Shown here in pieces: positions 5,351 through 61,116 of a stretch of DNA of 64,000 nt. Positions within the stretch are counted from its first letter, which is position 1. The number at the start of each line of letters is the position of its first letter. Source of the DNA: an uncultured Bacteriovoracaceae bacterium (GTDB taxonomy: Bacteria > Desulfobacterota > Desulfomonilia > UBA1062); assembly GCA_964618975.1 (NCBI GenBank), contig CAZUDI010000010.1, forward strand, positions 4,378 through 68,377, written 5' to 3'. The notes beneath the pieces were generated by a model that was given only the letters and a program-made list of their open reading frames with translations, did not search any database and had not been told where the DNA came from. The translations under genes and the position numbers were made by a program.

Positions 5351-5450
5351 CCTCGACGCTGCAAGTAGTAAGGGCATTGGTCCCATAGCGAATCAGGGGT
5401 CTAAACCCCAGGGCAAGCCTAAGGATCCTGCTTTCCGCTGCAAGCAGCGG
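5351..5450 (+). repeat. composite copy of the dispersed intergenic repeat family (hairpin+Y modules, then X+hairpin modules)
   Basis: cctcgacgctgcaagtagtaagggcattggtcccatagcgaatc, then ccccagggcaagcctaaggatcctgctttccgctgcaagcagcgg. Matches the copies at 21731, 52232, 54468(rc) and 61032. Confidence 0.8.
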
Positions 5451-5708
5451 TAAATTTGCCCCTCAGGCAATCAAAGGCCGCCCCTCCACCATGGGGGAGA
5501 TTGCGAGTCCTGCGCGAAAATGCTCTCCATAGGATCAAGCAAGTCGCCCCCGGGACAAAGGGGGCCTTACGGCAGATCTGCAGAACATCGCCCAACTCAT
5601 CCCCTGAACCCAGGACCCATGGTCCAGAGATAAGGTGTCTTGAAGTATCGGGCGAATCTGCGACTTCTGGGGATGGTGATCCCCAGGGTTTAAGCTTCAG
5701 GAAAACTC

Positions 5709-5741
5709 CGGCAGCCCTTCCCCCGCGGGGAAGGGCTGCCG
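5709..5741 (-). terminator. rho-independent terminator for the DUF3332 lipoprotein gene
   Basis: cggcagcccttcccc-gcg-gggaagggctgccg stem. On the minus strand it is followed by GAGUUUUCC. Confidence 0.6.
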
Positions 5742-5761
5742 CGTGAAGAAGCCTTTATTCT

Positions 5762-6304
5762 TTATTGGACGATGAGCCCCTGTCGCCCCTGCTCGACTTC
5801 CTGCGGCGAGAAGTATCTGATCAGGTGCTGGTTGCCGTCATACACAGAGACCCCTCCCAGCGTGTCGCGAGAAGAGGTGTAAAGGATCTTTCCGCCACCA
5901 TCGTGCATAAGCACTCCGGCAGGATCACGCTCCAGGATCAGCGCCCCGGGGGCACCCTCCGCCTCGATGGTGACTGTGTCCGCAATCTGGTCATAATGCA
6001 TGACGGCACCCTGTGCTTGCTTGCTCACCACATTGGTATTGCTGTTGCCTGAGGCCAGCGGATTCTCGCCGGTCCAGAACTCGATCGTATTGAATATCAC
6101 GGCATCACCGATCATGGCGATGCTGTAAACCGGCACGATCACGACTGCCAGGAAAATCAGCTCGTCCATCCATTTTTCCTGTTGCTGCCGGTGAATATCA
6201 TAAACGGCCCTGGTGAGCTTGAACGTGCCCGTACACCCGGTGAAGATCATACCGATAACCGCCAGTGCCACAACCAACCTTTTCATGAGATCCCTCCTGG
6301 TCAA
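5762..6304 (-). CDS. DUF3332-family lipoprotein
   Basis: Lipobox-like signal (LAVIGMIFTGC). Conserved DUF3332 core (YDIHRQQQEKWMDELIFLAVVIVPVYSIAMIGDAVIFNTIEFWTGENP). Confidence 0.7.
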   Translation of the reverse strand: MTRRDLMKRLVVALAVIGMIFTGCTGTFKLTRAVYDIHRQQQEKWMDELIFLAVVIVPVYSIAMIGDAVIFNTIEFWTGENPLASGNSNTNVVSKQAQGAVMHYDQIADTVTIEAEGAPGALILERDPAGVLMHDGGGKILYTSSRDTLGGVSVYDGNQHLIRYFSPQEVEQGRQGLIVQ

Positions 6305-6446
6305 AAGATTTAGTGCTTCAACGTATGGTTATAATCATTTCTGGTGGTGAATGCAACGGCTGTCCGGATACCTTTCCTGGCCTTTCGCCGCTGACACCCC
6401 AGGAAGCATGTCTGGGACCAGGACAGGGCTCCGAGGGAGCGGCACT

Positions 6447-6722
6447 TTACGGTTCAGCCCCTTTAAACCGGTTCATACGGTAGACGAAGGCCAGAATCTC
6501 GGCCACCACCTGGTAGAGTTCCTCGGGAATCTCTTCATTAATCTCAAGATGATAGAGGGCATCCAACAGGGCCTTGTCCCTCTGGATGGGTATATTGTTT
6601 TCCCGGGCCAAGGCGAGGATCCTATCCGCAAGGTCCCCGGCGCCCCGCGCCGTTACCCGCGGGGCTGGATCGCGCCCCCGTTCGTACCTCAGGGCCACCG
6701 CCTTGCGTCTTTCGCCATTCAT
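6447..6722 (-). CDS. FlhB C-terminal domain-like protein (YlqH/EscU family small protein)
   Basis: 91 aa. ARGAGDLADRILALARENNIPIQRDKALLDALY matches the FlhB/YscU C-terminal cleavage-domain fold. Confidence 0.8.
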   Translation of the reverse strand: MNGERRKAVALRYERGRDPAPRVTARGAGDLADRILALARENNIPIQRDKALLDALYHLEINEEIPEELYQVVAEILAFVYRMNRFKGAEP

Positions 6723-7471
6723 ACCAGCACATCCAAACCTGTCGGCCGGGGCCTGTGGAGTACTTCCAGCCGTTTGATACCCAAGGATTCGAGCCGTTCG
6801 AAGAGCTCGATGGCATGGTCCCGCAGAAGATCCGCACTCTCAGGTGTCTCGGTGAAAATCTCCACATCCAAACCGTCATCTAGCCGTGCCGTGGATTCGA
6901 TATGTCCCAGATGATCGGTGTGCATGTCAAAGCGGACGAGGTAGCCCCGGGATTGACCCCTCTCGATGGTCACCCGCGCCCTTCCTCCCGAGTCGTCGTC
7001 CACCACGGGGATAAGCAGGGTGGCCAAGGCCTCGGGGTGTCCCAGCAGATCATCCAGCAGGGTCCCAATGGCCTGTGCGTGAGAGGCGTCCTTGGGTGCC
7101 TGCAGGGCCTGTTCAAGGATGTTCTGAACGCTGAAGGAGCGCACCGGTCTGTCTCCCAGTCTGCCCACCAGACGCTCGACAAAGGCTTCAAGAATCCGTG
7201 TATTCTCCTGAGACCGGCTCGCTTCCGGCTCCACCTTGAGGACCACCCGGGGATGGACGGCCTGCACCTTCAGATTGAGGACCTCGCCCTTGACCAGTTT
7301 CATTGAGGTCTCGACGCTCAGCCTGCGGCCAAACAGGGACACCAGCACCTGTCCATTCTTTGGTCGGCCCAGCACCGTCACCACCACCCTTCTTCCCACC
7401 TGCAGTGAAGGGACCGCTTCGCGGACAAAGATTCTGCCGGATTTCGAAGAAGCAAGGGGGGTTATCTGCAT
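6719..7471 (-). CDS. hypothetical protein, possible FliK-like hook-length-control domain protein
   Basis: 250 aa ORF overlapping its neighbours by 4 and 10 nt, consistent with an operon. Sits immediately upstream of the FlhB-C-like gene, as FliK-like genes do in other genomes. The domain assignment is uncertain. Confidence 0.55.
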   Translation of the reverse strand: MQITPLASSKSGRIFVREAVPSLQVGRRVVVTVLGRPKNGQVLVSLFGRRLSVETSMKLVKGEVLNLKVQAVHPRVVLKVEPEASRSQENTRILEAFVERLVGRLGDRPVRSFSVQNILEQALQAPKDASHAQAIGTLLDDLLGHPEALATLLIPVVDDDSGGRARVTIERGQSRGYLVRFDMHTDHLGHIESTARLDDGLDVEIFTETPESADLLRDHAIELFERLESLGIKRLEVLHRPRPTGLDVLV

Positions 7472-7908
7472 CCGGATCCGCCCTCATCAGGGGCATTGAG
7501 CTTGATCATGAGCTGAATCTCTCCCAGGGGGATGCCGGTCAGACGTGCAATGTTTTCGGGTTTCGATCCTTCCCGGTAGAGGTTCATGACCTCAGCCTTG
7601 GAATAGTGCCTGGGCTGATGATCCCCTCTGTCTGCCGAGGGCCGCAACTGCTGTACGGCCTCATCCGCGTCCCGGATCCTCTTCTCGAGGTCCTGCATAA
7701 GGCAGGTGATGAAATCTGCCTTCTCCTGTACCTGACGTACGAATTCATCGGAGAGATGGCGGGCGTCCTCGATGGCCGCGCGAAGTGCATCTATGGCCTC
7801 GGGGGAAACTCGTCTTCTGCGCTCCCGCAATATGAGGATCACGATGAACATGAGCAGGACGATCTGGACAATGATTTGTGTATAAAGGACAATCCGGGAT
7901 GGATCCAA
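7462..7908 (-). CDS. membrane-anchored protein with C-terminal HTH (DUF2802-like)
   Basis: N-terminal transmembrane segment (IVLYTQIIVQIVLLMFIVILIL) and a C-terminal sigma-70 region-4-like HTH (NIARLTGIPLGEIQLMIKL). Confidence 0.55.
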   Translation of the reverse strand: MDPSRIVLYTQIIVQIVLLMFIVILILRERRRRVSPEAIDALRAAIEDARHLSDEFVRQVQEKADFITCLMQDLEKRIRDADEAVQQLRPSADRGDHQPRHYSKAEVMNLYREGSKPENIARLTGIPLGEIQLMIKLNAPDEGGSGCR

Positions 7909-7910
7909 GG

Positions 7911-8228
7911 CTATATCACCAGATCAATGAGGTGCTTCTCTTCCGTTTCAGGGGTGTTTGTCGCATCGGACGCCTCTTTCGCCTTTGCCGCTCCTGGCCT
8001 GCCCCGCGCGGTGCCGCTCCCGGACCGACGATCTTCGGTCTGAATGGCCTGCCCCTTCTTGGACGCATTCACCTCACGGTTGCGCCTGAGACGCTCACGC
8101 GCCTCTTCCTCGGTGAGGATCTGACGGCTCACTTCGGACTGGGCAAAGGGACTCTGATTGACCTTCTCTATCCTGCCCGCCTGGGACAGTATGGTCGATA
8201 TATCAGAGGGACCAGCCATCTCTTCCAC
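7911..8228 (-). CDS. hypothetical protein
   Basis: 105-aa ORF at the head of the minus-strand cluster. Low-complexity, charged C-terminus. No motif recognised. Confidence 0.4.
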   Translation of the reverse strand: MEEMAGPSDISTILSQAGRIEKVNQSPFAQSEVSRQILTEEEARERLRRNREVNASKKGQAIQTEDRRSGSGTARGRPGAAKAKEASDATNTPETEEKHLIDLVI

Positions 8229-8306
8229 CTCTTAAACATGTATCGACCATATTGCATATCACCTTAAATCCCTGTTGGCAATTCATTGATAGATCAAAGC
8301 ACCTTT

Positions 8307-8391
8307 GATCATGGGTATGAGTCTCTGGCAGCCCCGGCACCCTCCCCTCAAAAAGCCATAAGCAGCGGGGAATGCGGCCCTTAGCAATCGA
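8307..8391 (+). repeat. copy of the dispersed intergenic repeat family (X..Y modules)
   Basis: gatcatgggtatga...agcagcggggaatgcggcccttagcaatcga. Confidence 0.7.
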
Positions 8392-8419
8392 CTGTCCGCT
8401 TGTCGACGAGCGGACAGTC
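8390..8419. terminator. perfect inverted repeat abutting the repeat copy
   Basis: gactgtccgct-tgtcgacg-agcggacagtc. Confidence 0.45.
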
Positions 8420-8482
8420 ACGGCACAGACGGAACGAGGAGTTTCTCACGCTGCATGTTCCCCGGCACCGTCCATGGCTTGC

Positions 8483-9628: not shown

Positions 9629-9863
9629 AACGCCCCCCGTCTTTCGTCGCTTTGCCGGAACCCGTGTCTGACGAATAATTCAGAAGCACGAAGAGGAACA
9701 CGGAGTGGGCAAGACCGGGCTGCACACTCCGCACTATGTGAAATAATATGGGTAAGGTAACCTTCAGACCTGGAAAGTCAATATTGATGATTCGCGCGTG
9801 TAAGCGGCGCAGGTATTACCTCAATCGGTCGGATGATCGTCTGTCTTAACGTGATGCGGCGTA

Positions 9864-9905
9864 CCCTTCCCGGTGAATGCACTAAACATGCATTCACCGG
9901 GAAGG
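9864..9905. terminator. 18-bp perfect-stem hairpin, likely terminator of the DRTGG/nfn transcription unit
   Basis: cccttcccggtgaatgca-ctaaaca-tgcattcaccgggaaggg. Confidence 0.55.
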
Positions 9906-9942
9906 GGAAGACATCATAGTGTGCGTCCTTACAAGGTCTGCC

Positions 9943-10311: not shown

Positions 10312-10324
10312 ATCCTTACTTCCC

Positions 10325-11731: not shown

Positions 11732-11732
11732 A

Positions 11733-12584: not shown

Positions 12585-12602
12585 AAAGCCCTCCCTCTTT
12601 CC

Positions 12603-13752: not shown

Positions 13753-13755
13753 CGC

Positions 13756-14733: not shown

Positions 14734-14734
14734 C

Positions 14735-17022: not shown

Positions 17023-17023
17023 C

Positions 17024-19379: not shown

Positions 19380-19739
19380 CTACCCCAGGATAATGGCCTT
19401 GTATGGATTGGCATAGAGAATAATGAGCGTGATAACCAGAGCATAGATGGCGATGGACTCGGTCATGGCCAACCCGACCATCATGGTCAGCATGATCTTG
19501 CCCTGAGAGCCAGGGTTCCGGCCTACGGCCTCAGACGCACCCGAGGTTGCATTTCCCATTCCAGCACCAGCGCCGATCGCACCGAGGCCCATACAGAGAC
19601 CTGCACCGAGGATCGATGCCGCGACATAGATGATCTTGGCCCAGTCGACAAATCCACCGGCCACATCAGCCGCCATAGCTGCACTGGAAACCGCAAACAG
19701 CATGAACGCCGCAAACACAAAAACTCGTAATCCTCCCAT
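19380..19739 (-). CDS. atpE: F0F1-type ATP synthase subunit c (proteolipid) with N-terminal extension, orphan gene
   Basis: GLGAIGAGAGMGNATSGASEAVGRNP...MTESIAIYALVI c-subunit hairpin. Start at the ATG with an AAGGAGA RBS (the ORF track's 19745 is a GTG two codons upstream). No other atp genes are nearby. Confidence 0.7.
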   Translation of the reverse strand: MGGLRVFVFAAFMLFAVSSAAMAADVAGGFVDWAKIIYVAASILGAGLCMGLGAIGAGAGMGNATSGASEAVGRNPGSQGKIMLTMMVGLAMTESIAIYALVITLIILYANPYKAIILG

Positions 19740-21469: not shown

Positions 21470-21730
21470 GACCTACCCCCCGTATTCTTTATTGTCCCTA
21501 TTATCGGAAACAAGGGCCCTGGGCCTTAATGGATTCTCCCCCAAGATGGGGCCTCCCTGCTGCACAACCCTGGCAGGGGTCCTGTTGTATGCATATCGCC
21601 CGTGACCAACCCCGAGGCCCCCAGGGCCTTCATTCATATTTCCTGTGGCACTTGGTTGGCGTCAATGATATGAAAAGCTTGGGCATGAATGCTAGGGCAG
21701 GCCTCGGAATCCCTGCTCGTCACAGACGGA

Positions 21731-21832
21731 GGGGCACGCGGCCCTTAGCGGATCATGGGTATGAACCCCAGGAAAAACCTGCCCCCCCCTCGACGCTGCA
21801 AGAGGCAGGGAATGCGGCCCATAGCGATTAAA
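21731..21832 (+). repeat. full copy of the dispersed intergenic repeat family, ending 3 nt before the histidine kinase start codon
   Basis: ggggcacgcggcccttagcg-gatcatgggtatgaaccccagg-...-ctcgacgctgcaagaggcaggg-aatgcggcccatagcgattaa. Confidence 0.85.
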
Positions 21833-21835
21833 ACT

Positions 21836-24351: not shown

Positions 24352-24391
24352 ATAGGTTATAGTTTAGCTTTAAGCTTAATAAGGAGATCCC

Positions 24392-27207: not shown

Positions 27208-27224
27208 GAGTTCCTCCTATTATA

Positions 27225-27248
27225 GTTTAAAGTTATACTTTATACTTC
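27225..27248 (-). promoter_or_regulatory. GTTTAAAG-N8-TATACTTC motif copy 1, overlapping the core promoter of the fadH-like gene
   Basis: gtttaaag-ttatactt-tatacttc. On the gene strand, CTTTAAAC directly abuts a TATAAT hexamer (revcomp of 27219-27224) and the AGGAGG RBS. Confidence 0.5.
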
Positions 27249-27292
27249 ATTATGCCTGCGGCCACACCCTGTCAAGTCCAAACCGTCAAAAG

Positions 27293-27316
27293 TTTAAAGT
27301 TAGACTTAATACTTTA
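27293..27316 (-). promoter_or_regulatory. GTTTAAAG-N8-AATACTTT motif copy 2, 68 bp further upstream in the same orientation
   Basis: gtttaaag-ttagactt-aatacttt. Confidence 0.45.
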
Positions 27317-27428
27317 TGTTTTGCTTGCATGCCACGCAAACTTGTGGCATTCTCATAAAATCATCATGCAAGGGACGCCATCACGGACCATACCGGTATG
27401 GCACTCTAATATCCTAAAGGAGCATGTC

Positions 27429-28585: not shown

Positions 28586-29575
28586 TCATGTCAGGCGGGC
28601 CTGTGTTTTCTGCAGGCAGGCCACGGCCTCGCTATGCATACGGCTGAGCAGTTGCTCGCAGGTCAGTATCTCGTGAATGAACCCAATGGACTGCCCCACC
28701 ATGAGCGGCGCCTCCTCGGGGTTCCCCGATTCCCAGGCCTCCTTGACGCGTTCGCCGCCGATGAGGGGTATAAGCTCTTCGAGCCCGCCACCGCGGGCCT
28801 CGATCTCCTGAACGGTCCGGGTGATGCGGTTCTTGAGCGACCGGCCCTGCAGGCCGAGCGACTTGCAAAAGATTGTGGTGTCGTTCTCTTGGCGCCGGAT
28901 GAGCTCGTCCTTGATGTTCCGGTGCACCTCGCATTCCTCGGTGGCGATGAACCGACTCGCCATCATCACGCCCTGAGCCCCCAGGGTCAGGGCCGCGGCC
29001 AGTGAGCGGCCGTCCGAGATCCCACCCACGCTCACCACAGGGATATTCACCGAGTCCACGATGCGCGGGGTCAGGACCATGGTGGTCACGTCGTCATCCA
29101 GGGGGTGTCCCCCCTCCTCGAATCCGGCGGCATAGACCCCGTCATAGCCGGCCTTCTGGGCATGCAGGGCGTGGCGCACCGAGCCCACCTTATGGAAGAG
29201 CTTCACACCCGCCTTCTTCAACTCTTCGACCCCCGCAGGCCCGGCCACCTTGTCGATGGGCGTGCCCGACACCTCGATCCCGGCCACCTGTTCCTGGGCA
29301 CATACGCGGATGTACATCTGGTGGTGTTCCTGCGTGATGCGGATAGAGGGCAGCAGGGTCAGCCCCACCATAAAGGGCTTGTCCGTAAGCGTTCGCGTCT
29401 CGCGGATGGCGGCGCGGAATTCTTCCTCGGTTTCGTAATTACCGGCGGTGAGGTTGCCCAGGCCACCGGCATTACTGATAGCGGCACACAGTTTGGGCCG
29501 GCAAAGCCACATCATGGCCCCGCAGATGACCGGATAGCGGATGGCGAACATGTCGGTAATAGCGGTCTTGATCAT
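28586..29575 (-). CDS. nitronate monooxygenase-family FMN oxidoreductase (second paralog)
   Basis: MIKTAITDMFAIRYPVICGAMMW and GGISDGRSLAAALTLGAQGVMMASRF are NMO-family motifs. GGGAGGA RBS. Confidence 0.85.
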   Translation of the reverse strand: MIKTAITDMFAIRYPVICGAMMWLCRPKLCAAISNAGGLGNLTAGNYETEEEFRAAIRETRTLTDKPFMVGLTLLPSIRITQEHHQMYIRVCAQEQVAGIEVSGTPIDKVAGPAGVEELKKAGVKLFHKVGSVRHALHAQKAGYDGVYAAGFEEGGHPLDDDVTTMVLTPRIVDSVNIPVVSVGGISDGRSLAAALTLGAQGVMMASRFIATEECEVHRNIKDELIRRQENDTTIFCKSLGLQGRSLKNRITRTVQEIEARGGGLEELIPLIGGERVKEAWESGNPEEAPLMVGQSIGFIHEILTCEQLLSRMHSEAVACLQKTQARLT

Positions 29576-29602
29576 AATTCCTCCCTGACGTTGGATAGGT
29601 AA

Positions 29603-29626
29603 GTTTTAAGTTGTACTTCATGCTTC
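29603..29626 (-). promoter_or_regulatory. GTTTTAAG-N8-CATGCTTC motif copy 3, upstream of the second NMO gene
   Basis: gttttaag-ttgtactt-catgcttc, 28-51 bp upstream of the start codon. Confidence 0.45.
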
Positions 29627-29790
29627 ATAATATCCGCGCATGCGCTTGTCAAGGTGATTCCTTGTTGGGACAAGGCGGTGCCTATGTCAGGAAGGAGCAA
29701 GCGTCTGTCATGCGGGGACACGCCCGGTTGCGGATGGAAGTCACCCTGCCAGTCGGCCCTTTCATCACCCCGGCAGCCATGGTACTATAT

Positions 29791-29830
29791 TGATTATGGG
29801 TATGAACCTCAGGACAGACCCTGGAATCCC
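29791..29830 (+). repeat. partial copy (X module) of the dispersed repeat family
   Basis: tgattatgggtatgaacctcagg. Confidence 0.5.
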
Positions 29831-30191
29831 CACTACACTGCCAGCGGCGGCGTATTCGCCTCACAACGATTGAATCTTGAAGAGATGGGGTTAATTAAAG
29901 GAGGGAGGTGCATGGGATGCATGGGAATATCTTGACCCAGATCGACAACACCCTGGAAAGGGCCCTCAGACGGGTTTGCCTAATACCCCATGGACGACGA
30001 CGTTCCCTGTCCCCGGAACCCGGCCGCTGTGAAGTCGGGCCCCTCCTGCAGTCTGGCGCTACGCTGCCACGCGCGCGTCGGCCCAAACACACCGAGGACC
30101 TACCCTTTAGCGCACCCTATCTCGTCCGGCATACTGAACCGCACTCCCCAGTCTTCCACGGGCCCCTTATCACCTTGCCGCAGGAGGATCA

Positions 30192-36898: not shown

Positions 36899-37746
36899 CC
36901 GGATTCGGACAGGCGGAAAGTGACGGCTACCGCATCGAGATCAAAGGCCTCAACCATCGTTATCGCGAGCTCAGACTCAAGCTTCCCCGTGAGTTGGGTT
37001 CGCTGGAGATGCTGCTTAGGGAACAGCTCACCGAGCAGATCAAACGCGGCAAGGTGGAGGTCGTCATCACCCGGAGTTCCCCGGCCGGCCAGGAAGGTGC
37101 CTTTGCCGTCAACTGGCCGCAGGCGAGGGCCTGTGAGCACGAGCTGCGGGCCATGGCCGCGGAGTTCGGCGGAGAGGTGAGCTTTCGGGAAATCCTCTGG
37201 ATCCCCGGGGTGATCCAGGAAACTCCCGGCGATGCACAGTCCGAACTGGCCAGGATCCAGACCTGTCTGCAACAGGCCATGCAGGACTTCAACGCCTCCA
37301 AGGAACGCGAGGGCGCGCGCCTTAAGACCGACATGGTCGGACGCATACAACAACTGCTCGCCCTGCAGGAGGCCATGCAGCGAGAGGCCGAACATGTCCC
37401 CCAAGTGTACCGCGAGAAGCTCGCTACTCGACTGAATGTCCTCCTAGCGGGACATGGCCAGGACATCGACGAGATGCGGCTGGCCCAGGAGGTGGCGATC
37501 CTGGCCGACAAGGCGGATATCACCGAGGAACTCGTCCGTCTCAAGAGCCATCTCTCCGGCTTCATCGAGGTGCTCTCCCAGACCAAGGAGCCCGTGGGCC
37601 GACGCCTCGATTTCATCCTTCAGGAAATCAACCGTGAGATCAATACAATCGGTTCCAAATCTCAGCTCGCGCCCCTCAGTCACCTGGTCATCGATGCCAA
37701 GACCGAGGCGGAAAAAATCCGCGAGCAGGTTCAGAATATCGAATAA
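36883..37746 (+). CDS. yicC: YicC/YloC-family stress-induced protein (endoribonuclease YicC)
   Basis: MTGFG N-terminus and a C-terminal YicC domain. 287 aa. Confidence 0.85.
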   Translation: MPRSMTGFGQAESDGYRIEIKGLNHRYRELRLKLPRELGSLEMLLREQLTEQIKRGKVEVVITRSSPAGQEGAFAVNWPQARACEHELRAMAAEFGGEVSFREILWIPGVIQETPGDAQSELARIQTCLQQAMQDFNASKEREGARLKTDMVGRIQQLLALQEAMQREAEHVPQVYREKLATRLNVLLAGHGQDIDEMRLAQEVAILADKADITEELVRLKSHLSGFIEVLSQTKEPVGRRLDFILQEINREINTIGSKSQLAPLSHLVIDAKTEAEKIREQVQNIE

Positions 37747-42819: not shown

Positions 42820-43017
42820 GCTTATAGACGTGGCCCATCCAGGAAAACCGCACAAGGAGATGCAATATTTCCCGTTGATATTCTCCGGGTCTTTCCTGTA
42901 AGAGGGGTGCTTGGCGCAAGCATGACGGGGTACGCCCCATATCCCTTATGAAACCATACGTGGCGGGGAAGGCGCCCCATAGCGGATGCGTGAGTAATAT
43001 CGAGGTAACATGAGAGA

Positions 43018-45016: not shown

Positions 45017-45113
45017 CAATGGTATGAGGAAGCAGGGGCATGGCGCCCAGGGCACACCCTGGCCCCCCGTTGACGAGCAAGCGGTAAGGGAATGGACCCC
45101 TAGCGATTAAGGG
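45017..45113 (+). repeat. degenerate copy of the dispersed repeat family, ending 10 nt before the nnr start codon
   Basis: caatggtatgagga...cgttgacgagcaagcgg...gggaatggacccctagcgattaaggg. The Y module runs into the GGGAGG RBS of nnr. Confidence 0.6.
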
Positions 45114-46688: not shown

Positions 46689-47652
46689 ACCGCAAGACAT
46701 GGGGGCGCGTCAGCAGCGGGAGGCCTTGAGGTATGCCGCGCCAGTGTCCAGATGCCACTATTGCGCCTGTGCGGGGTCTGCACATGGAGACAATCCCGTG
46801 ATCAATCATGGGGATACCCCCCAGGGCAAGCCTTGGACCCTCTTGGTCACCGCAAGTGGTGGGGAATGCGACCCTCAAACGATTCAAGGCTTCGAGCGGG
46901 GACTGCACCTGCGGGAGGTACAGGTTTCCCCCTCGCGCGGCACGATCCTCTATGTGCATGGCCTGGGGGAATCGGGCCAGTGCTTCGAGCCCCTCATGCA
47001 GAACGCCAGACTGGCCCCCTGGTCGCACCTGGCACCCGACCTGCCCGGTTATGGTCAGAGCCCGGACTTGCCCGGGGGACTTGCGGGCCATGCGGATCAT
47101 CTCTCCGACTGTCTGCGTCGACACTCGGCCCCGCCAGTGGTGGTCCTTGGCCACTCCATGGGAGGGGTGGTGGGGCTCCTGCTCTGCGAACGCCACCCTG
47201 ATCAGGTGGCCGCCTTCGTCAATGTGGAGGGCAATCTCACGCCTTCCGATTGCACCTTCAGCGCCCGCATCGCGACCATGGGGGCAGAGGCCTTCATCGC
47301 GCACGGTTTTAACCGGTTACGGCAGGACCTTGAGCAGATGGCCGTTTTAGACCCTGTGCTGCAGGGCTATCACGCGCGCATGGGACAGTGCGATCCCCGG
47401 CGTCTTTATGCCGACAGCCTCGAGCTTGTCGAGTATTCAAAAGCGGGCAGACTCGCTGATCGCCTGGCCGCGCTGTGCGTTCCCACCCTATATATTTCCG
47501 GATACCCGCGGGGCATAGGTGAACCCACCCGCGAAATCCTCAGGGTCAGCGGCCTGGCCTGGCAGGAGCTTCCCGGCGCCGGGCACTGGGTCTTCCTCGA
47601 CCAGCCAAGACGCTTCATCGACGCGCTCAAGGGATTCCTGGTCCGTCTCTAG
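46654..47652 (+). CDS. alpha/beta hydrolase
   Basis: LYVHGLGESG ... GHSMGG nucleophile elbow. The N-terminal roughly 75 codons of the listed ORF overlap nnr by 35 nt and are encoded by a repeat copy at 46801-46889. The true start is probably downstream (a candidate TTG sits at 46843). Confidence 0.75.
   Translation: MISAMPSRRSFRPQDMGARQQREALRYAAPVSRCHYCACAGSAHGDNPVINHGDTPQGKPWTLLVTASGGECDPQTIQGFERGLHLREVQVSPSRGTILYVHGLGESGQCFEPLMQNARLAPWSHLAPDLPGYGQSPDLPGGLAGHADHLSDCLRRHSAPPVVVLGHSMGGVVGLLLCERHPDQVAAFVNVEGNLTPSDCTFSARIATMGAEAFIAHGFNRLRQDLEQMAVLDPVLQGYHARMGQCDPRRLYADSLELVEYSKAGRLADRLAALCVPTLYISGYPRGIGEPTREILRVSGLAWQELPGAGHWVFLDQPRRFIDALKGFLVRL
46801..46889 (+). repeat. full copy of the dispersed repeat family, lying at or in the 5' end of the hydrolase ORF
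   Basis: atcaatcatggggatacccccagggcaagccttggaccc-tcttggtcaccgcaagtggtgg-ggaatgcgaccctcaaacgattcaagg. Confidence 0.75.
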
Positions 47653-48067: not shown

Positions 48068-48246
48068 CTGCTCCTCCCCTGAAAGCATGCATCCCAAGGC
48101 AAACCCTGGCACCCACATGCGACCGCCCGCATTAAGGGCATGCTACCCTTAGCGATTGTTGAGCCGGTGGCAGTGGACTGGCACCGGGGACCTGCCCGGA
48201 TTCGCTGAGCCTCGAGGACGGCCTCGGACGAGCAGCCCTCGGAGCT

Positions 48247-50112: not shown

Positions 50113-50185
50113 CTTCTATGTCCCTCCCCTATCTTTGATCTTTTTGTCCTCAAACGTGCGGCCATCCATGCACCGCATCACTCCC

Positions 50186-50250
50186 AATCATGGGGGTGAC
50201 CCCCAGGGCAGGATTCCCTTGACGCCACAAACCTTAAGGGAATTAGCCAC
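50186..50250 (+). repeat. partial copy of the dispersed repeat family
   Basis: aatcatgggggtgacccccagggcaggattccc...cttaagggaattagcc. Confidence 0.55.
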
Positions 50251-50258
50251 ATAAGGCC

Positions 50259-50942
50259 CTATTCGTCCGGCCCCACCCACTCCCTGGGTGGCCCAATGAG
50301 CACGAAGGGGCCGGGATTGAGGGGACCACCTCCCAGGGACATGTAGCCCGCACAGATATAAAGTCGCTCGTTCACCCGGCGCACCTCATCGTGCATGGAA
50401 TGGACCACATCGTCGTTGTAGGGTCCGTAGTCCAGATGATATGCATCCCGGCCGTCCTTGCCGATCGTGGTGGGCCCGACCCAGTTGTTCATCCTGCGCC
50501 GACGCAGGGTCTGCGTTGTGCCGTCCGGCCTTCTGACGTTGAAGATGTTGTATCCCCAACCTCGGTTGCGGCCCTCAGGGTTGAAGGCCTTGCCCTCCCA
50601 GCTGGCCTTGAGAATCGGCCTGCCCGAGGGGAAGACATGGTGCGTAAAGAGGGCCGTGGGGCGACCCAGCAACCCGCCGCTCAGGACCCGGGCCTGATAC
50701 TCGCCCTTCATCTCCTGGAACTCGGGCACCTCGGCGGCATAGAACAACTGCATGGTGTCCCGGCGTGAGAGCCGTTCGACATCCTCCCAGGTTGCCTGCC
50801 TGGGATCCTTCCCCAGGATCTGTGCCATGGTCCGGCCGTCGGGCCTGCGGCTGCCCGCCTGCAGGATGTTGATCAGCAAACCTGTCAGATTGGAGAGCAG
50901 CACCCCTGCCGCGACGAAAATCACCTTGTGGAACACCTTCAT
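50259..50942 (-). CDS. hypothetical N-terminally anchored protein
   Basis: Start at ATG 50942 with an AAGGAGG RBS. N-terminal transmembrane or signal segment. In an operon arrangement with the SDR gene downstream of marR. Confidence 0.65.
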   Translation of the reverse strand: MKVFHKVIFVAAGVLLSNLTGLLINILQAGSRRPDGRTMAQILGKDPRQATWEDVERLSRRDTMQLFYAAEVPEFQEMKGEYQARVLSGGLLGRPTALFTHHVFPSGRPILKASWEGKAFNPEGRNRGWGYNIFNVRRPDGTTQTLRRRRMNNWVGPTTIGKDGRDAYHLDYGPYNDDVVHSMHDEVRRVNERLYICAGYMSLGGGPLNPGPFVLIGPPREWVGPDE

Positions 50943-51161
50943 ATGCACCTCCTTGATTGATCGCCTTCGATAATCATCATCCACCCCCCGGCCTTCCTCC
51001 CCAGAGGAGAGAGGGCAGGGGCGAGAACGTGGTCACGCATGCACATGCCCACATCATCACAGGAGGACTCCCCTCCGAATCAATCCGGAACAGCAAGGCG
51101 GATATGGGACATTTATCGCCATGGGTCGCCTTTCCCGTCGCCCTTCACGGCAAAAGGGCCT

Positions 51162-51680: not shown

Positions 51681-52231
51681 GTTTAGACCTTAGCATTTTT
51701 ATTTGCATGCTGCAATCTTTTTCTTATGGCCTTCGATTGACAGGCATAGTCCGTCATGCCTGAGAGGCTGACCCATCCCGCCAAATCCGCTTCAATCATG
51801 GAAATGAACCCCGGGGCCTGGCAGGACTCCCTCAAGGATGCCCCGGGTGTTGCGCAAAGCGATTCCGGACGTCTGCAACAGGACTGGCCTGCCTGCCCAC
51901 GAATCCCTTGAAGGCCGCGGTTACATTGCCCGTGACGTTGTGTACCTCATCATGCACACCGGAAAGACCACCGGCGTCGATCAACCGGTGAGGCCCTGGA
52001 GTCTGAAACAACAGAGGCTTCGTTTGCGTTATGCAATCAATAATATCGGCTGTGTCCTTGACCGTAAATCATATCGATTGCATCACGGCCGTACCATCGA
52101 TATTATCAATGATATGACATGAAAGGCTTCTCCGTCATGGTATGCTCACAGGAGACCACCGCCCGGCGGTCTTTCCCGGGGCAAGCCCTGCAGCCTGTGC
52201 AAACTGCCAGCGGAGAGGGAGACATGTCTTT

Positions 52232-52312
52232 CAATCATGGGTATGAACCCCGGCAAGCCCAGGCATCCTCTTGTTAACGCTAACGGCGGGGACCTCGACC
52301 CATAGTGATAAA
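52232..52312 (+). repeat. full copy of the dispersed repeat family, ending 15 nt before the carboxylesterase start codon
   Basis: tcaatcatgggtatgaaccccggcaagcccaggcatcc-tcttgttaacgctaacggcgg-ggacctcgacccatagtgataaag. Confidence 0.8.
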
Positions 52313-52327
52313 GAAGGGGGTAAAAGC

Positions 52328-54367: not shown

Positions 54368-54412
54368 GAACAGGTGCATGACAGGAAACATGACATAAGA
54401 GGCCTTGCTGAA

Positions 54413-54458
54413 TCTGTCAGGGGAAACCTTCCGGATAAGAAGTTTTCCCCTGACAGAC
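54413..54458. terminator. bidirectional rho-independent terminator between convergent genes
   Basis: tctgtcaggggaaa-...-ttttcccctgacaga, a 14-bp stem with a T-run. Confidence 0.6.
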
Positions 54459-54467
54459 CCCTTTCAA

Positions 54468-54556
54468 GAAGCTTAAGGACTATGGGTCTGATTCCCCGCT
54501 GCTTGCAGCGGAAAGCAGGGGCCTTAGGCTTGCCCTGGGGTTCATAACCATGATTG
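54468..54556 (-). repeat. full copy of the dispersed repeat family in inverted orientation
   Basis: The reverse complement reads atcatggttatgaaccccagggcaagcctaaggcccctgctttccgctgcaagcagcggggaatcagacccatagtcc. Confidence 0.85.
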
Positions 54557-54590
54557 GCCTGAGGGTCGCATTCCCCGCCGCTGGCGGTGC

Positions 54591-56729
54591 CTAAGTGGGG
54601 TCTTTCGCCTTACAGCCCCGCCCTTTGCCGGGCTGACCGGCGATGCGCATGCGGGCGTCCAGGGCCAGCACGCCCTGCCCGTTCACCATCACGCGCACCG
54701 GGTTGAGATCGAGCTCGCCTATCTGCGGAAAGGCCGCCAGCAGGTGCGAGACGCGCACCAGGAAATCGACGAAGACCGGCAGGTCGCTCTTGACCCCGCC
54801 GCGGGCACCGGTGAGCAGGGGGAAGCAGGCAAGCCCCATGAGGCGCTGCATGATCTCCTCGCGCGGGGCCGGGCACAGACAGCAGGCCACATCGCGGAAA
54901 ATCTCCACGTAGATGCCGCCCAGGCCGAAGTAGAGCACCGGTCCGAAAGAGGCATCCTGCGTACCGCCCACGAACATGTCCACCCCCGCTGGCGCCGTCG
55001 CCTGCAGGCGCACCCCGTCGAAGCGGGCCTGCGGCAGGCTGACTTCAAGGTTTTCCCGCAGGCGCGCGAAGGTGCGCCTTACCCCCTCCTCGTCGGCCAC
55101 CCCCAGGGCCACCCCGCCCACCTCGGTCTTGTGCAGGGCCGCAGGCGAGATCACCTTCATGACCACCGGGAAACCCAGTTCGCCGGCCGCCAGGACGGCC
55201 TCCTCCGGGGAGGTGGCCACCCGGGAGGCGGCCACCCGCATCCCGAAGGTCTCGCACAGCTCCAGGGCCTCTTCGCCGCAGTCACCGCCTGCGCCCTCCA
55301 GCCAGGCCCGGGCACGCGCCTGATCGATGCCGTCGGGTGGCCGGGGTGGCGCATAGGGGGTGCGGGTGTGGAAATGCATCTGCATGGCCATGGCGCGCAC
55401 GAGCTCCTCAGGGCTGTTGAAGATGGGGAAATTCACCGCCTTCTTGGTCTGCAAGGTCAGCTTGGAAGGGCCGAAGAGGCACACCCCCATAGGCTTGCCG
55501 GCCGAGAGGATCGCCCCCCAGGTCTCCTTGGACAGGTCGGTCAGGAACATGCGGTGAAAGACCGTGTCGCCGGGGGGCATGTGGGGATACTGGGTCACGA
55601 GCAACGCCCCGTCGATCTTCTCCGAATGCATCACCGAGTAGATGACATGCGCGGTGAGCTGCGGGTCGTAGATATCGCCCATGTCCAGCGGGTTCGAGAA
55701 GCGGATGACCCCGGCGTTGCCGTAGTTCCTAAGCCCCTCGTAGAAATCCCGGCCCGGATCGGCGAAGGCGAAGCCCGCCTTCTCGCACAGATCGGCCGTG
55801 ATCACCGAGAACCCTCCCGCCGGGCTCATGACCATGACCCGCCGGCCGCGCATGGGCGGCAGGCTGAAGGCCTTGGCCGCGGCGAAGAAGTCATGGTAGT
55901 TGTGGATGCGCAGGATGCCGGCACGCTCGAAGGCGGCATCGATGATCTCTTCGTCGTTGCTCAGAGCCGCGGTATGGCTCATGGCCGCCTTCGCTCCGGC
56001 CGGGGTGGAGTTGGCCTTGTAGACCACGATGGGCTTGTCGATGTGGGATGCCGCCTCGATCAGCGCCTGGCCGCGTTCGATGCTCTCCACATACAGGCAG
56101 ATGACCCGGGTCTCGGGGTCCCGGCCATAGTATTCCAGGAAGTCCACCTCGTCCAGATCGAGCTTGTTGCCGATGCTGGCGAACTTGGCGATCCCGATGT
56201 TTTCGTCCACGAGGTAGTTGAAGATCATGATCGAGACGCCCCCGCTCTGCGAGATGATGGACATGCCGCCCTTGGGCGCCCGGCACAGGGGGATGAAGGG
56301 CAGGCACAGCCCGCTGGAGGTGTCCGCCACGGTCAGCCCGTTGGGCCCCACGATGCGCACCCCGAAGGCACGGGCCTGCTCCAGGGTGAGCGCGGCCAGC
56401 TGCTTGCCTTCCGCGCTGAACTCGGAAAACCCGCCCGAGGGCACGGCCATGTGCCGGATGCCGAAGCGCCCGCAGCGTTCCACCATCTCGGGCACGTGCC
56501 GCGCCGGGACCAGGCAGAAGGCCAGATCGGGCACCACGGGCAGGTCCTCGATATCCCGGTACATGCGGATACCGTCCACCTGCTCCTCCGTCCCCTTAGG
56601 GTTGACCCCGAAAATGCGCCCGCGATACCCCCAGCGCAGGGTGTTTTCGAGCGTGATGCGGGGGATGTTGTTCGGCTTGGACGACAGACCGATGATCGCA
56701 AGTGATGCGGGCGCAAACAGTTTCTCCAT
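54591..56729 (-). CDS. acetate/acyl-CoA ligase (ADP-forming) family protein (CoA-binding + ligase-CoA + ATP-grasp)
   Basis: Start at ATG 56729 with an AAGGAGG RBS (MEKLFAPASLAIIGLS CoA-binding N-terminus). C-terminal ATP-grasp domain. 712 aa. Confidence 0.9.
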   Translation of the reverse strand: MEKLFAPASLAIIGLSSKPNNIPRITLENTLRWGYRGRIFGVNPKGTEEQVDGIRMYRDIEDLPVVPDLAFCLVPARHVPEMVERCGRFGIRHMAVPSGGFSEFSAEGKQLAALTLEQARAFGVRIVGPNGLTVADTSSGLCLPFIPLCRAPKGGMSIISQSGGVSIMIFNYLVDENIGIAKFASIGNKLDLDEVDFLEYYGRDPETRVICLYVESIERGQALIEAASHIDKPIVVYKANSTPAGAKAAMSHTAALSNDEEIIDAAFERAGILRIHNYHDFFAAAKAFSLPPMRGRRVMVMSPAGGFSVITADLCEKAGFAFADPGRDFYEGLRNYGNAGVIRFSNPLDMGDIYDPQLTAHVIYSVMHSEKIDGALLVTQYPHMPPGDTVFHRMFLTDLSKETWGAILSAGKPMGVCLFGPSKLTLQTKKAVNFPIFNSPEELVRAMAMQMHFHTRTPYAPPRPPDGIDQARARAWLEGAGGDCGEEALELCETFGMRVAASRVATSPEEAVLAAGELGFPVVMKVISPAALHKTEVGGVALGVADEEGVRRTFARLRENLEVSLPQARFDGVRLQATAPAGVDMFVGGTQDASFGPVLYFGLGGIYVEIFRDVACCLCPAPREEIMQRLMGLACFPLLTGARGGVKSDLPVFVDFLVRVSHLLAAFPQIGELDLNPVRVMVNGQGVLALDARMRIAGQPGKGRGCKAKDPT

Positions 56730-56951
56730 GATCTCCCTCCTTGATGAGAACCTCCATCCCTGACGCCAGGCGCAGGTATCGAAGCCGACCTCCGTGGGGG
56801 GTGGGCATTTCCGCCCCCCACACAGGTATGCCCGGCCTCCCTTTCGAGCCTCCTTACCGCAGACGCATGCCGCCCATGGATATGCGGCGTCCATATCAAT
56901 GGCCCGGCGTCACCACCTTTTGACGCCGGGCCGACCCCCTTTTTGCTCTCT

Positions 56952-58796: not shown

Positions 58797-58859
58797 AACG
58801 TTCTTTCCTCCTTTAGCTGTTATTTCTATCTCTTGTTGTCTTGTACATCTCTAAGGGTG

Positions 58860-60266
58860 TTATATTGCCGCAACAGCCACAGGCTGATCTGCATCCTGGC
58901 AGACCCCCAGCTTCTTCGTGAGTGCTCGTGAATATTCATGGGAGACGACCAGGGCCCGCACCGCCTCCTCCGGTGAGAGGAAGACCGGGATCTGGTGCGT
59001 ACTGCGGATATCGAGGATCTTCTCCACCGTGTTGGGGATGTAGATGGCAGCAGGCTTGCCGAATTCACGGCACATGGCCACCAGCTCCCGCGTGGCATCG
59101 ATGATGAAATCCTGCCAGACATTCGGGATGGGCAGCAGCCCGTCCACGCTGTCCGACGAGAGCAGGATCTCGTAGATATCGAGGAAGGTCTGGATGTTCA
59201 GGGCCGGCCCGAGGTCGATGGGGTTGGCGGCGTTGTAGAGCTGCCCGACCTTGCGCAGCCGTGACTGGACATCCTCGCTCAGACGGGCCATCTCGAGCCC
59301 CCCAGACACGAGCAGGTCCGCCGTGATGCCACCCAAGGCCCCGGTATTCGAAATCACGGCGATGCGCCGACCCTTGAGGGGCGGCATGGTGGTGAAGATC
59401 TTGGGCAGGCTGAAGAGTTCGCTGATGGCCTGCACGCGGATCAGCCCTCCCTGGCGACAGGCGTTCTCGAAGACCACGTCGTTGTTGGCCATGCCGGCGG
59501 TATGGCTCAGGGCGGCCCGGGCGCCGGCCTCGGTCCGGCCCACCTTGTAGACCAGGATGGGCTTTCTCACGCGGCGGGCGGTCTGAAGCAGCTTGGTGCC
59601 CTGACGCACGTTCTCCAGGTACATGCCGATGACCTCGGTATTATCGGAGGCGAAATAGGCCAGCAGGTCGGCCTCGTCGATATCCGCCTTGTTGCCGATG
59701 GAGACCAGCTTGTTGATCTTGGCCACATCCCGTTCCATGGATTCGAGAATCAGCGCCCCCACCCCCCCGCTCTGGACGATGTACGAGCAGGTTCCCGGGT
59801 GGGCAAAGACGTCGCCGTACTTCTCAGGCGCCCCGCCGAAGAGGCAGCAGAAGCGGCTGTGCGCATCCAGCAGGCCCAGGCAGTTGGGGCCGATGAAGCG
59901 CATGCCGAAATGCCCTGCTATCTCATCCACCTCGGCCTGTAACCGACGCCCCTCCGGTCCCTCCTCGGCGAATCCCGCCGACTGGATGATGAAGCGGCGG
60001 ATTCCCTTGACGCCGCAGGCGCGCACCGTCTCGGGGACCAGACGTGCCTGGATGATGATCACCGCCAGATCCGGGCATTCCGGCAGGGCCTCCACCGCGC
60101 TGAATCCGGGATAGTCGTGCGACGGCTCTCCCCGGGGGTTGACCACGCAAACCTTCCCGGCATAGTCGATATGACGCAGCAGCTTGCAGATCGTGGAGCC
60201 GAGGTTGAAGGGGCTGTTCGAGGCGCCCACGATCACCACCGACCGCGGATTGAAAAACTTATCCAT
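58860..60266 (-). CDS. CoA-binding domain protein (alpha-subunit-like part of an ADP-forming acyl-CoA synthetase, lacking ATP-grasp)
   Basis: Start at ATG 60266 with an AGGAGG RBS (MDKFFNPRSVVIVGASNSP). Succinyl-CoA-synthetase-like CoA-binding and ligase-CoA domains. Confidence 0.85.
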   Translation of the reverse strand: MDKFFNPRSVVIVGASNSPFNLGSTICKLLRHIDYAGKVCVVNPRGEPSHDYPGFSAVEALPECPDLAVIIIQARLVPETVRACGVKGIRRFIIQSAGFAEEGPEGRRLQAEVDEIAGHFGMRFIGPNCLGLLDAHSRFCCLFGGAPEKYGDVFAHPGTCSYIVQSGGVGALILESMERDVAKINKLVSIGNKADIDEADLLAYFASDNTEVIGMYLENVRQGTKLLQTARRVRKPILVYKVGRTEAGARAALSHTAGMANNDVVFENACRQGGLIRVQAISELFSLPKIFTTMPPLKGRRIAVISNTGALGGITADLLVSGGLEMARLSEDVQSRLRKVGQLYNAANPIDLGPALNIQTFLDIYEILLSSDSVDGLLPIPNVWQDFIIDATRELVAMCREFGKPAAIYIPNTVEKILDIRSTHQIPVFLSPEEAVRALVVSHEYSRALTKKLGVCQDADQPVAVAAI

Positions 60267-60309
60267 CAAGGCCTCCTGGTTGCATACGCATGTCTTGAGC
60301 CCACGGCCC

Positions 60310-60843
60310 TTATATGTCACCCGCTGGGGGGGAAAGGGATCTCCGGCGGAGTTCCTCCGCATATTTCGCCTTGAGCCCCTCGAGCATGTCGATGATGGTC
60401 AGCAGCACGAAGCGCCCGTTCTCGTCGGCCACCTCGCAGGTCTCAATCTCCATCTGCCGCAGGTCCTCGAGCTGTTCGTCCAGGGCGGAGATCTCGGAGA
60501 CGAACTGCTCGAGGATCTGTCCCCCCTCGAGGAAACGGAAGAAGAAGGCCCGCGTAAGGAAGTCGATCTGATAGTCCACCGGCGTGGGCGCGGCGGTGAG
60601 CTTCTTGTAGAAGAGCTCCCGGCCCTGGGTCGTGACCGTATAGACGTGCTTGTTGGGCTTGCCGGTCTGAATGACTACCTCCTTGCGCACCAGGTCGGAC
60701 TCCTCGAGTTTGCGCAGGGCGGGATAGATCTGATTGAGACTGAGGTTATAGGAAACCATCATCTTGCCCGAGATACGCTTGATCTTGTAGCCGGTCTTGG
60801 GTCCGGACATGAGGAAGCCCAGGATCATCAGTCCTGTATCCAT
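60310..60843 (-). CDS. PadR-family transcriptional regulator
   Basis: PadR winged helix (ILGFLMSGPKTGYKIKRISGKMMVSYNLSLNQIYPALRKLEESDLV). Confidence 0.85.
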   Translation of the reverse strand: MDTGLMILGFLMSGPKTGYKIKRISGKMMVSYNLSLNQIYPALRKLEESDLVRKEVVIQTGKPNKHVYTVTTQGRELFYKKLTAAPTPVDYQIDFLTRAFFFRFLEGGQILEQFVSEISALDEQLEDLRQMEIETCEVADENGRFVLLTIIDMLEGLKAKYAEELRRRSLSPPAGDI

Positions 60844-60892
60844 CTCAATACTCTCCGTAACAACTATTTCAATTTAAATTGCTTTATATGAA

Positions 60893-60913
60893 TATACTTT
60901 ATTTGAAAGTATA
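60893..60913. promoter_or_regulatory. AT-rich inverted repeat upstream of padR (candidate PadR operator)
   Basis: tatacttt-atttg-aaagtata (8 of 9 dyad positions), 50 bp upstream of the padR start. Confidence 0.45.
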
Positions 60914-61031
60914 CCTGTTCCCCTTGCCTGTCAAGTACCATCATCCACCCAGGGGCGCCCGGACGTTTCAAACTCAGGGTCCGTACAGACGGCCTGCCCT
61001 CCGGAAAGATAACGCCTTCGTTTATTTCGCG

Positions 61032-61116
61032 TAATCATGGGTATGAACCCCAGGGCAAGCCTAAGGACCCAGCTTTTTGCTGCAAGCAGCCAGGGAATTC
61101 GACCCATAGCGATTAA
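61032..61116 (+). repeat. full copy of the dispersed repeat family (closest to consensus)
   Basis: taatcatgggtatgaaccccagggcaagcctaaggacccagctttttgctgcaagcagccagggaattcgacccatagcgattaac. Confidence 0.85.

Follow-up and report, generated by a model that had tools for sequence, protein, structure and literature searches.

An undescribed family of short intergenic repeats, probably mobile, in the genome of an uncultured Thermodesulfobacteriota bacterium

We have analysed a stretch of 64,000 nucleotides (hereafter the window, 64 kb long, to which all coordinates refer unless another locus is named) from contig CAZUDI010000010.1 of an uncultured bacterium deposited as Bacteriovoracaceae (assembly GCA_964618975.1) and placed by GTDB within the Desulfomonilia. 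The window carries genes on both strands, split about evenly between them and including housekeeping operons (Rnf, YchF, NnrD), and in the spacers between these genes lies a repeat of about 85 nt with a density of ~1 per 4-5 kb. The family is real and undescribed and belongs to a known kind: it is probably an ordinary mobile element, small and parasitic. The window is part of a contig of 74.8 kb, with sample accessions ERZ23495388 and SRR5112541. The NnrD protein encoded here has at most 64% identity to any other protein, with named matches among Deltaproteobacteria, Syntrophales, and Thermodesulfobacteriota metagenome-assembled genomes (MAGs). Public contigs of the same population (metagenome scaffolds) are 99.6-100% identical to the window and near clonal, and gene positions were taken from the public gene calls on them. 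A preliminary description of this DNA, made from the letters alone, had listed 11 copies of an element with three modules (X, H, and Y), together with two weaker fragments.

The family was delimited with a covariance model (R1) trained on 16 window copies and six from other genomes, and with a hidden Markov model (HMM) derived from an alignment (A1) of 17 candidate window copies. With filters off, R1 retrieved exactly 17 copies at 14 loci (E <= 5e-5, 19.9-91.8 bits), 15 on the plus and two on the minus strand, with a clear gap to the next match at 11.6 bits, and the HMM recovered the same set. Models built from the copies, as the preliminary description had proposed, thereby return the same 17 units, and all 11 of its sites and both of its weaker fragments are true copies. 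The consensus it gave for X is found at three sites and that for Y at two with no more than three mismatches, the shuffle expectation being 0.00 for each, and a repeat finder clusters seven to eight of the copies unaided. Only one unit type is present in the window, with copies of 73-89 nt, a mean pairwise identity of 59% (range 44-83%), and a preservation that goes from 92 down to 20 bits and includes 5'-truncated copies. Several details of the earlier list had to be revised (Table 1). The fragment near 42973 is real, and the one near 1258 is a good full-length copy (57.5 bits) rather than a fragment; c5, c8, and c9 had been drawn too short; those at 5351, 21731, and 54468 each hold two head-to-tail copies, of which the second members had been missed; and one weak copy (c10) was absent from the list. 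A degenerate sequence at 52132-52220 is a possible 18th copy.

What had been described as permuted modules (Y-X-H-Y, or H-Y followed by X-H) are actually head-to-tail tandems. The three pairs (c2a with c2b, c4a with c4b, and, on the minus strand, c12a with c12b) share one constant junction, TAGCG[A/G]ATCA, and in each of them the upstream member is the truncated or more diverged one. The possible 18th copy and c11 may form a fourth tandem pair (52132-52315).

The consensus consists of five segments in the order AATCATGGGTATGAACCCC, AGGGCAAGCCTTGG, ACCCnCTTGACGC, CGCAAGCG, and GCGGGGAATGCGACCCATAGCGATTAA. Its ends are terminal inverted repeats, AATCATGGG ... CCCAT(AGC)GATT, although imperfect ones, the left reading AATCAT-GGGTATGAACCCC and the right GGG-N7-CCC-AT(AGC)GATT. 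The inverted pair ATGGG/CCCAT noticed at the outset is genuine and its pairing reaches further, to AATC/GATT, with an outer left end AATC-AT-GGG...CCC and a right end GGG...CCC-AT(AGC)-GATT. Inside the ends there are two small stem-loops, P2 and H, each with a G(CAAG)C tip. P2 (CCAGGG-CAAG-CCTTGG) sits within the former X module, so that X, H, and Y are all present and the modules number four instead of three. Two folds are open to the unit, a single long branched hairpin or four local ones. The GGG/CCC core of the ends pairs in 18-19 of 22 sequences, and the outer helix, formed by long-range pairing of the two ends, is 57-67% paired in the same set; in copies from Smithella (see below) the arms are near-perfect complements, e.g., GGGTATGAACCCCAAAGCG/CGCTTTGGGGTTCATACCC in locus L012.

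For the four-hairpin structure, 78.6% of cells were paired in a MAFFT alignment, where slid partners gave no more than 61.8% and column shuffles 73.3%. In a model-based alignment of 43 distinct sequences the figure was 80.6%, and there 11 pairs were changed on both sides, a number reached in four of 500 shuffles. The clearest cases are one pair in the H stem (AU7/CG6/UA5/UG2/GU1) and one in P2 (AU19/GC17), in agreement with the compensated hairpin variants suspected earlier. G-U cells (31) and A-C cells (40) were about equally frequent, favouring neither strand, RNAalifold found no consensus structure in the noisy MAFFT alignment, and single copies gave folding z-scores of +0.6 to -2.1 on either strand. 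These three results favour neither strand as the one that folds, nor a fold that matters as RNA over one that matters as DNA.

Every copy lies between genes or, at most, shares a few initial or terminal codons with a gene call. Nine of the 14 loci are found upstream of a gene and in sense with it, some of them ending 1-25 nt before the start codon, two are located 3' of genes in convergent spacers, and three (8306, 48082, 50185) are antisense, between minus-strand genes. The downstream genes (histidine kinase, aminotransferase, NnrD, hydrolases, MMPL) have no common function, on which ground a shared regulon was rejected, and so was a riboswitch or cis-regulatory leader, given the mixture of sense, antisense, and 3' loci, the unrelated genes, and the many truncated or decayed copies. 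No reading frame is open in all copies, and their indels do not come in multiples of three; the frames that start from the conserved ATG-GGT-ATG-AAC-CCC differ in length and phase, none of them being open throughout, and a small protein or upstream open reading frame (ORF) was discarded for this reason. Two short Smithella ORFs end in ATGA at the start of the next gene, which we judged coincidental. Both the gene calls and the lack of a shared frame bear out the initial view that the element is non-coding and confined to intergenic DNA. No sigma-70 promoter or intrinsic-terminator consensus was found in any copy between 44.5 and 62 kb, and a sigma-54-like reading of P2 plus a CTTGAC motif failed because of its spacing (assessed by eye). 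Three public gene starts lie in a copy or run through one (21812, 46798, and 51838); the corresponding N-termini, of a histidine kinase, an alpha/beta hydrolase, and a 94-aa ORF, are probably mis-called.

As many as 13 of the 14 loci are on the plus strand, with window genes divided about evenly (two-sided binomial p ~0.002), and three of the four loci within minus-strand gene blocks are still on plus. GC skew is negative throughout, which points to a window lying within one replichore. A replication-strand rule for orientation would fit the window (13/14) but was rejected, as Smithella loci show mixed orientations.

The exact 18-mer ATCATGGGTATGAACCCC, scanned against one genome per species, gave 40 matches, of which ~16 carry further modules of the element, the rest being coding-region or chance matches (those in EF-G-like and other coding contexts were set aside as chance, and loci L010 and L033 are probably of the same nature). 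The genuine relatives come from MAGs of Smithella, Syntrophaceae, and 'delta proteobacterium', retain X, P2, H, and Y, reach 54-76 bits with R1, and show compensating stem changes, AAAGCAAGCTTT replacing AGGGCAAGCCT and GCAGCATGCTGC replacing GCTGCAAGCAGC. Their density reaches 3 per 8 kb, with unrelated flanks; many Smithella copies are likewise upstream of, and in sense with, genes, and two Smithella loci (L037, L040) have both orientations within a few kb. In Smithella-type loci the unit is usually found joined to a small hairpin plus a second hairpin repeat of ~60 nt (module 2), giving the layout X-P2-H-Y + small hairpin + module 2, of which shorter variants are deletions between the two GCAAGCT loops. 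Contigs that are clearly Bacteroidota likewise contain X, a Y-like block (GTATTATACCCTCC), and module 2, next to type IX secretion proteins and a Bacteroidota-type REP-associated tyrosine transposase (RAYT; REP, repetitive extragenic palindrome). The 18-nt left module, AUCAUGGGUAUGAACCCC, is identical in genomes of ~40%, 45%, and 60% G+C (Bacteroidota and Syntrophales-like), an identity that is partly an ascertainment effect because the scan sought exact matches.

Neither the HMM nor R1 detected a copy in ~80 kb from the three closest NnrD relatives, in which NnrD identity is 63%. With relatives in Smithella and Bacteroidota and none in these ~80 kb, the family is patchy and cross-phylum, and its presence in other genomes disposes of the idea of a merely local duplication, raised in the preliminary description as what might undo it. 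Nothing similar was found among PLSDB plasmids and the exact 18-mer had no match in IMG/VR, and on these nulls a plasmid or phage origin was rejected. Literature searches, on the motif strings as well as on repeats of Smithella or Syntrophus, turned up no description of it.

A tblastn search of the window with the RAYT of locus L019 as query gave no RAYT-like or IS200-type (Y1) transposase, and there was no transposase or integrase domain among ~30 element-flanking ORFs scanned against Pfam (other window ORFs were not scanned); to this extent the earlier statement that no transposase is present stands. An X-bearing composite in L019 stops 25 nt short of a gene; homologues of this gene bear the annotation 'REP element-mobilizing transposase RayT'. 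This RAYT family has its own GTAG-type REP, GTAGGGACAGGTCGCGACCTGTCCCTAC, beside the gene and in frame inside it (L019, L055, L056), and no X or Y modules were found near the homologues of the L019 gene, which was rejected as the mobilising enzyme on both counts. We found no further transposase adjoining a copy. As for traces of movement, the matching flanks of c13 (TA/TA), c7 (TCA/TCA), and c5 (TG/TG) are suggestive. The copies are old, and their 5' flanks share only an A at position -1.

Compared by description only, the architecture is closest to that of inverted-repeat MITEs (short for miniature inverted-repeat transposable elements) such as Correia of Neisseria, RUP of pneumococcus, or Chunjie of Geobacter uraniireducens. 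Like these, it is small, does not code for protein, and lies in intergenic DNA, where its numerous dispersed copies vary in length and preservation; it has terminal inverted repeats able to form a long hairpin, and is often situated just upstream of genes and co-transcribed with them. Partial copies have been reported for Chunjie, and the bunching and mutual insertion of pneumococcal BOX, RUP, and SPRITE repeats (PMC10969869) is similar to the fused repeats found here. Unlike those MITEs, the family shows no clear target duplication, no parent insertion sequence, and no internal promoter consensus, and it has two internal covarying stem-loops and a strong strand bias in the window. Of the usual marks of a MITE we found small size (under ~500 bp), absence of coding capacity, and terminal inverted repeats; an autonomous insertion sequence with the same ends, or empty sites, did not appear in the window or in the fetched loci.

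The architecture is also close to that of REPINs (REP doublets forming hairpins; PMC3116915, PMC3337134), with which it shares two inverted short units within a hairpin of ~70-110 nt, a high extragenic copy number, GC-rich stems, and the lack of a clear target duplication. It differs from them in having no GTAG tail, its own tails reading ATCAT and ATAGCGAT, and in arm hairpins of only 3-5 bp, and the RAYT genes of L019, L055, and L056 are flanked and, in frame, interrupted by GTAGGGACAGGTCGCGACCTGTCCCTAC, not by X or Y, the window itself being without RAYT. Bacterial interspersed mosaic elements (BIMEs) of E. coli and the BOX/RUP/SPRITE clusters of S. pneumoniae are similarly modular, with tandems and with modules alone, fused, or nested (here chiefly in Smithella-type loci), but our family has one unit type in the window, its tandems are head-to-tail instead of alternating, and there is no known sequence relationship. 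Palindrome-associated transposable elements (PATEs) derived from IS200/IS605 have in common with it the subterminal hairpins, the lack of a clear target duplication, and strand-biased insertion; unlike theirs, its outer ends are inverted repeats, no conserved 4-5 nt target precedes the left end, there is no TnpA or TnpB close by, and no Y1 transposase was found in the window. An integron attC array was also rejected, since the window copies have no attC cores (RYYYAAC...GTTRRRY), housekeeping operons separate them, and no integrase domain was seen among the ~30 flanking ORFs. Strict membership of either MITE or REP could not be shown, because the flanks are mixed, no parent element was found, and the RAYT genes, where testable, go with another repeat.

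The explanation that we favour, with moderate confidence, is that these short, non-coding units are mobile repeats of the MITE/REPIN kind which do not move autonomously and depend on an enzyme whose gene lies elsewhere. The high density, the restriction to intergenic DNA, and the range from intact to truncated copies fit selfish mobile repeats better than a dedicated RNA or protein-binding site, and the same reading is suggested by the 59% identity, the modular deletions, the clustering and fusion with other repeats in relatives, the unrelated flanks, and the patchiness. The family looks old in this genome, with many copies being decaying relics, and a dedicated host function is not indicated. 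In mechanistic terms, an enzyme encoded elsewhere in the genome would recognise the conserved ends and mobilise the unit in trans; we slightly favour a conventional transposase that uses the inverted repeats over a single-strand HUH enzyme, and copies would persist only in intergenic DNA. New copies would often insert exactly at the right end of an older one, which would explain the head-to-tail pairs with a more decayed upstream partner. Copies inside transcription units add hairpins to 5' or 3' untranslated regions (UTRs) and could incidentally affect mRNA stability or translation.

Several observations weigh against this explanation. Neither the window nor any fetched locus yielded a transposase with matching ends; target duplications are absent or inconsistent at most copies, with none at c1, c3, c6, and c11; and all three tandem junctions fall 3 nt short of the length that a shared TA or TTAA target predicts. 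No indel or insertion polymorphism was found at any copy in the same-population contigs, nor orthologous flanks or empty sites among the fetched related loci. To have 13 of 14 loci on one strand is unusual for inverted-repeat transposons. Finally, stems slightly better kept than in shuffles (78.6% vs 73.3%) and a left module of 18 nt that is identical at 40-60% G+C would also fit a selected function.

A REPIN- or PATE-like unit mobilised as single-stranded DNA by an HUH (Y1) transposase, such as a RAYT or an IS200/IS605 TnpA, seems to us possible but doubtful. The enzyme would recognise, as hairpins at the replication fork, two inverted REP-like units (each a conserved single-stranded tail with a short GGG...CCC hairpin) and would insert them in a strand-specific way, leaving no target duplication. 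This would account for the plus-strand loci in a window of uniformly negative GC skew, even within minus-strand gene blocks, for hairpins kept through compensatory changes, for the lack of a consistent target duplication, for a constant junction, as expected of insertion 3' of a fixed sequence, and for the parity of G-U and A-C cells, expected of DNA-level palindromes. An HUH-type mechanism stays the main rival on account of the strand bias, the unvarying junction, and the absence of clear duplications. However, the sole RAYT near a family member (in L019) has its own REP and its homologues are not flanked by X or Y, the element is without a GTAG tail, its arm hairpins are merely 3-5 bp, its outer ends are inverted and not direct as in IS200/IS605, and the Smithella loci L037 and L040 mix both orientations. 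In addition, REPIN-RAYT systems are mostly inherited vertically, according to a RAREFAN preprint, versus the patchy, cross-phylum occurrence of this family.

A functional structured RNA transcribed with its neighbours, acting as a cis-regulatory leader, as a processing or stability element, or as a small ribozyme, and multiplied through its usefulness or by propagating itself, is unlikely in our view. Unpaired and junction segments (ATCATGGGTATGAACCCC, the CAAG loop) conserved while stems vary, the nine sense loci upstream of genes, several of them 1-25 nt before a start codon, with many Smithella copies alike, and an 18-mer identical across phyla would all be expected from it. Yet Rfam has no match to the family at the gathering threshold, at E <= 10 on the window, or with single copies under lax filters, nor to the family in 16 related loci, so that the Rfam search proposed in the preliminary description leaves it unmatched and the structured RNA motif offered there as an option is without positive evidence, RNAalifold, the near-zero z-scores, and the lack of a G-U preference over A-C included. 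Many copies are truncated or decayed, three loci are antisense to transcription units and two 3' of genes, the downstream genes share no function, the density is far above that of known regulons, and no copy was seen in ~80 kb of the closest relatives. Very improbable, to our mind, are immobile, repeated binding sites for a nucleoid-associated or regulatory protein (BIME-like architectural sites). The intergenic location, the highly conserved 18-nt block, and the strand bias within one replichore could be read in that way, but with 85 nt and covarying hairpins the unit far exceeds a protein binding site in size, decay and truncation are seen among the copies, in other phyla the unit stands between unrelated flanks, and no candidate binding protein emerged. 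A broader proposal, also rather unlikely, is that we are looking at a functional structured nucleic acid shared across phyla, the core of an undescribed mobile system or a widespread UTR RNA module, and not at a decaying transposon relic; the 18-nt module, identical while the stems next to it covary, could in that case be a recognition or catalytic core, e.g., of a ribozyme-bearing element or of one mobilised as a single strand by a new enzyme.

This work adds an undescribed, abundant repeat family to the poorly studied genomes of uncultured Thermodesulfobacteriota (Syntrophales-like). Modules common to Smithella and Bacteroidota imply horizontal spread of very small elements between phyla in anoxic habitats, and this sharing across phyla, together with the strand bias, is what merits further study. 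The mobilising enzyme, once found, could show how an 18-nt end stays invariant while the rest adapts to the base composition of the host. At a practical level, the copies distort gene calling and can break metagenome assemblies.

Table 1. Copies of the repeat in the window, followed by sites of other repeats in loci from other genomes. Scores are R1 bits.
Feature	Position	Strand	Bits	State and context
c1	1261-1346	+	57.4-57.5	full-length; divergent intergenic, 56 nt upstream of GAF gene (1402-2013 +)
c2a	5316-5388	+	33.4	5'-truncated or decayed, H-Y only; upstream tandem partner, after terminator-like hairpin of aminotransferase gene; nhmmer 5322-5395
c2b	5390-5477	+	72.6	full-length; downstream tandem partner, convergent intergenic region
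c3	8306-8394	+	56.2	full-length; between two minus-strand genes, antisense to both
c4a	21674-21748	+	46.5	diverged; upstream tandem partner; nhmmer match
c4b	21750-21834	+	73.2	full-length; ends 1 nt before ATG 21836 of histidine kinase gene, whose public call begins inside the copy at 21812
c5	29791-29876	+	72.7	full-length; divergent intergenic, after nitronate monooxygenase (NMO) gene (28586-29575 -)
c14	42917-42992	+	46.5	5' half decayed; 25 nt upstream of aminotransferase gene start 43018
c6	45029-45113	+	58.1	full-length, GC-rich; ends 9 nt before NnrD gene start 45123, tail overlaps its ribosome-binding site
c7	46803-46889	+	82.5	full-length; between NnrD and alpha/beta hydrolase genes; hydrolase start called at 46798, so the called ORF passes through the copy
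c8	48082-48162	+	50.3	no recognisable X module; between two minus-strand genes (antisense)
c9	50185-50264	+	41.3	decayed; between two minus-strand genes (antisense)
c10	51793-51869	+	19.9	weak, degenerate (E 4.7e-5); MarR divergent region; repeat family D14
c11, possible partner	52132-52220		11.1	degenerate
c11	52232-52315	+	73.3	full-length; 12 nt upstream of carboxylesterase gene start 52328
c12b	54472-54556	-	81.9	full-length; spacer between convergent carboxylesterase (+) and CoA-ligase-like (-) genes; inverted repeats I1, I2
c12a	54559-54631	-	39.7	5'-truncated; upstream tandem partner; overlaps last codons of gene ending at 54591; inverted repeat I3
c13	61032-61119	+	91.8	best, closest to consensus, exact X match; PadR/MMPL divergent region, 119 nt upstream of MMPL gene start
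RAYT-gene REP sites	L019 5640-5800			
RAYT-gene REP sites	L055 4250-4460, 3850-3960			
RAYT-gene REP sites	L056 3960-3985, 4250-4320			
Module 2	L012 953-1013			
Module 2	L039 1172-1232, 3657-3717			
Module 2	L023 4679-4739, 4841-4895			
Module 2	L037 3088-3148			
Module 2	L041 4740-4798			
Module 2	L019 5329-5377			

Module 2, absent from the window, reads ATWRTTCRAC - stem - GCGCTTCGC loop - stem - GAGTYTCAYNAATAAA over ~60 nt and is preceded by the small CCC...GGG hairpin. It is common to Syntrophales-like and Bacteroidota MAGs, with stems that differ in sequence and stay complementary, occurs also alone, and in some copies carries a loop insert of ~40 nt (TGACCTTTAGGTTAT...). The Bacteroidota RAYT genes have an upstream REP and, in frame, partly tandem REP inserts that alter the length of the protein (homologues of 161-336 aa).

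The assemblies of the population differ at a few places: a 24-nt indel in an ATP-synt_C-like gene (19461-19484), a 10-nt indel near 37605, a break or duplication near 55540 (55533-55550), by which the CoA-ligase-like gene is divided in other assemblies, and a stretch after c13 (61173-61212) that does not align. Long, near-perfect GC-rich hairpins without a T-run adjoin three of the loci (5262-5300, 8395-8420, and 54405-54470); they are placed at the ends of convergent or co-directional genes and are probably terminators or structural elements unrelated to the repeat. Direct repeats with 72-73% identity (55931-56036/59459-59564 and 56135-56193/59660-59718) are not the element, being due to two paralogous CoA-binding/succinyl-CoA-ligase-like genes (54591-56894 and 58860-60362).

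An AT-rich quasi-palindrome of 24-27 nt, AGTTTAAAGTTATACTTTATACTT, is found four times (24354-24380, 27224-27250, 27291-27317, and 29602-29628), in the promoter regions of a MerR-family gene, of an FMN/OYE-type reductase gene and its divergent neighbour, and of the nitronate monooxygenase gene; it is probably a shared operator of one regulator. Lastly, a probable 6S RNA gene at 484-673 on the minus strand matches Rfam RF00013 over its full length (43.9 bits against a gathering score of 46.4, E 1.5e-5). It is flanked by zapA (678-971 -) and, a little beyond the edge of the window, by a 5-formyltetrahydrofolate cyclo-ligase gene (1132-1662 in L001), the classic ssrS-ygfA arrangement.

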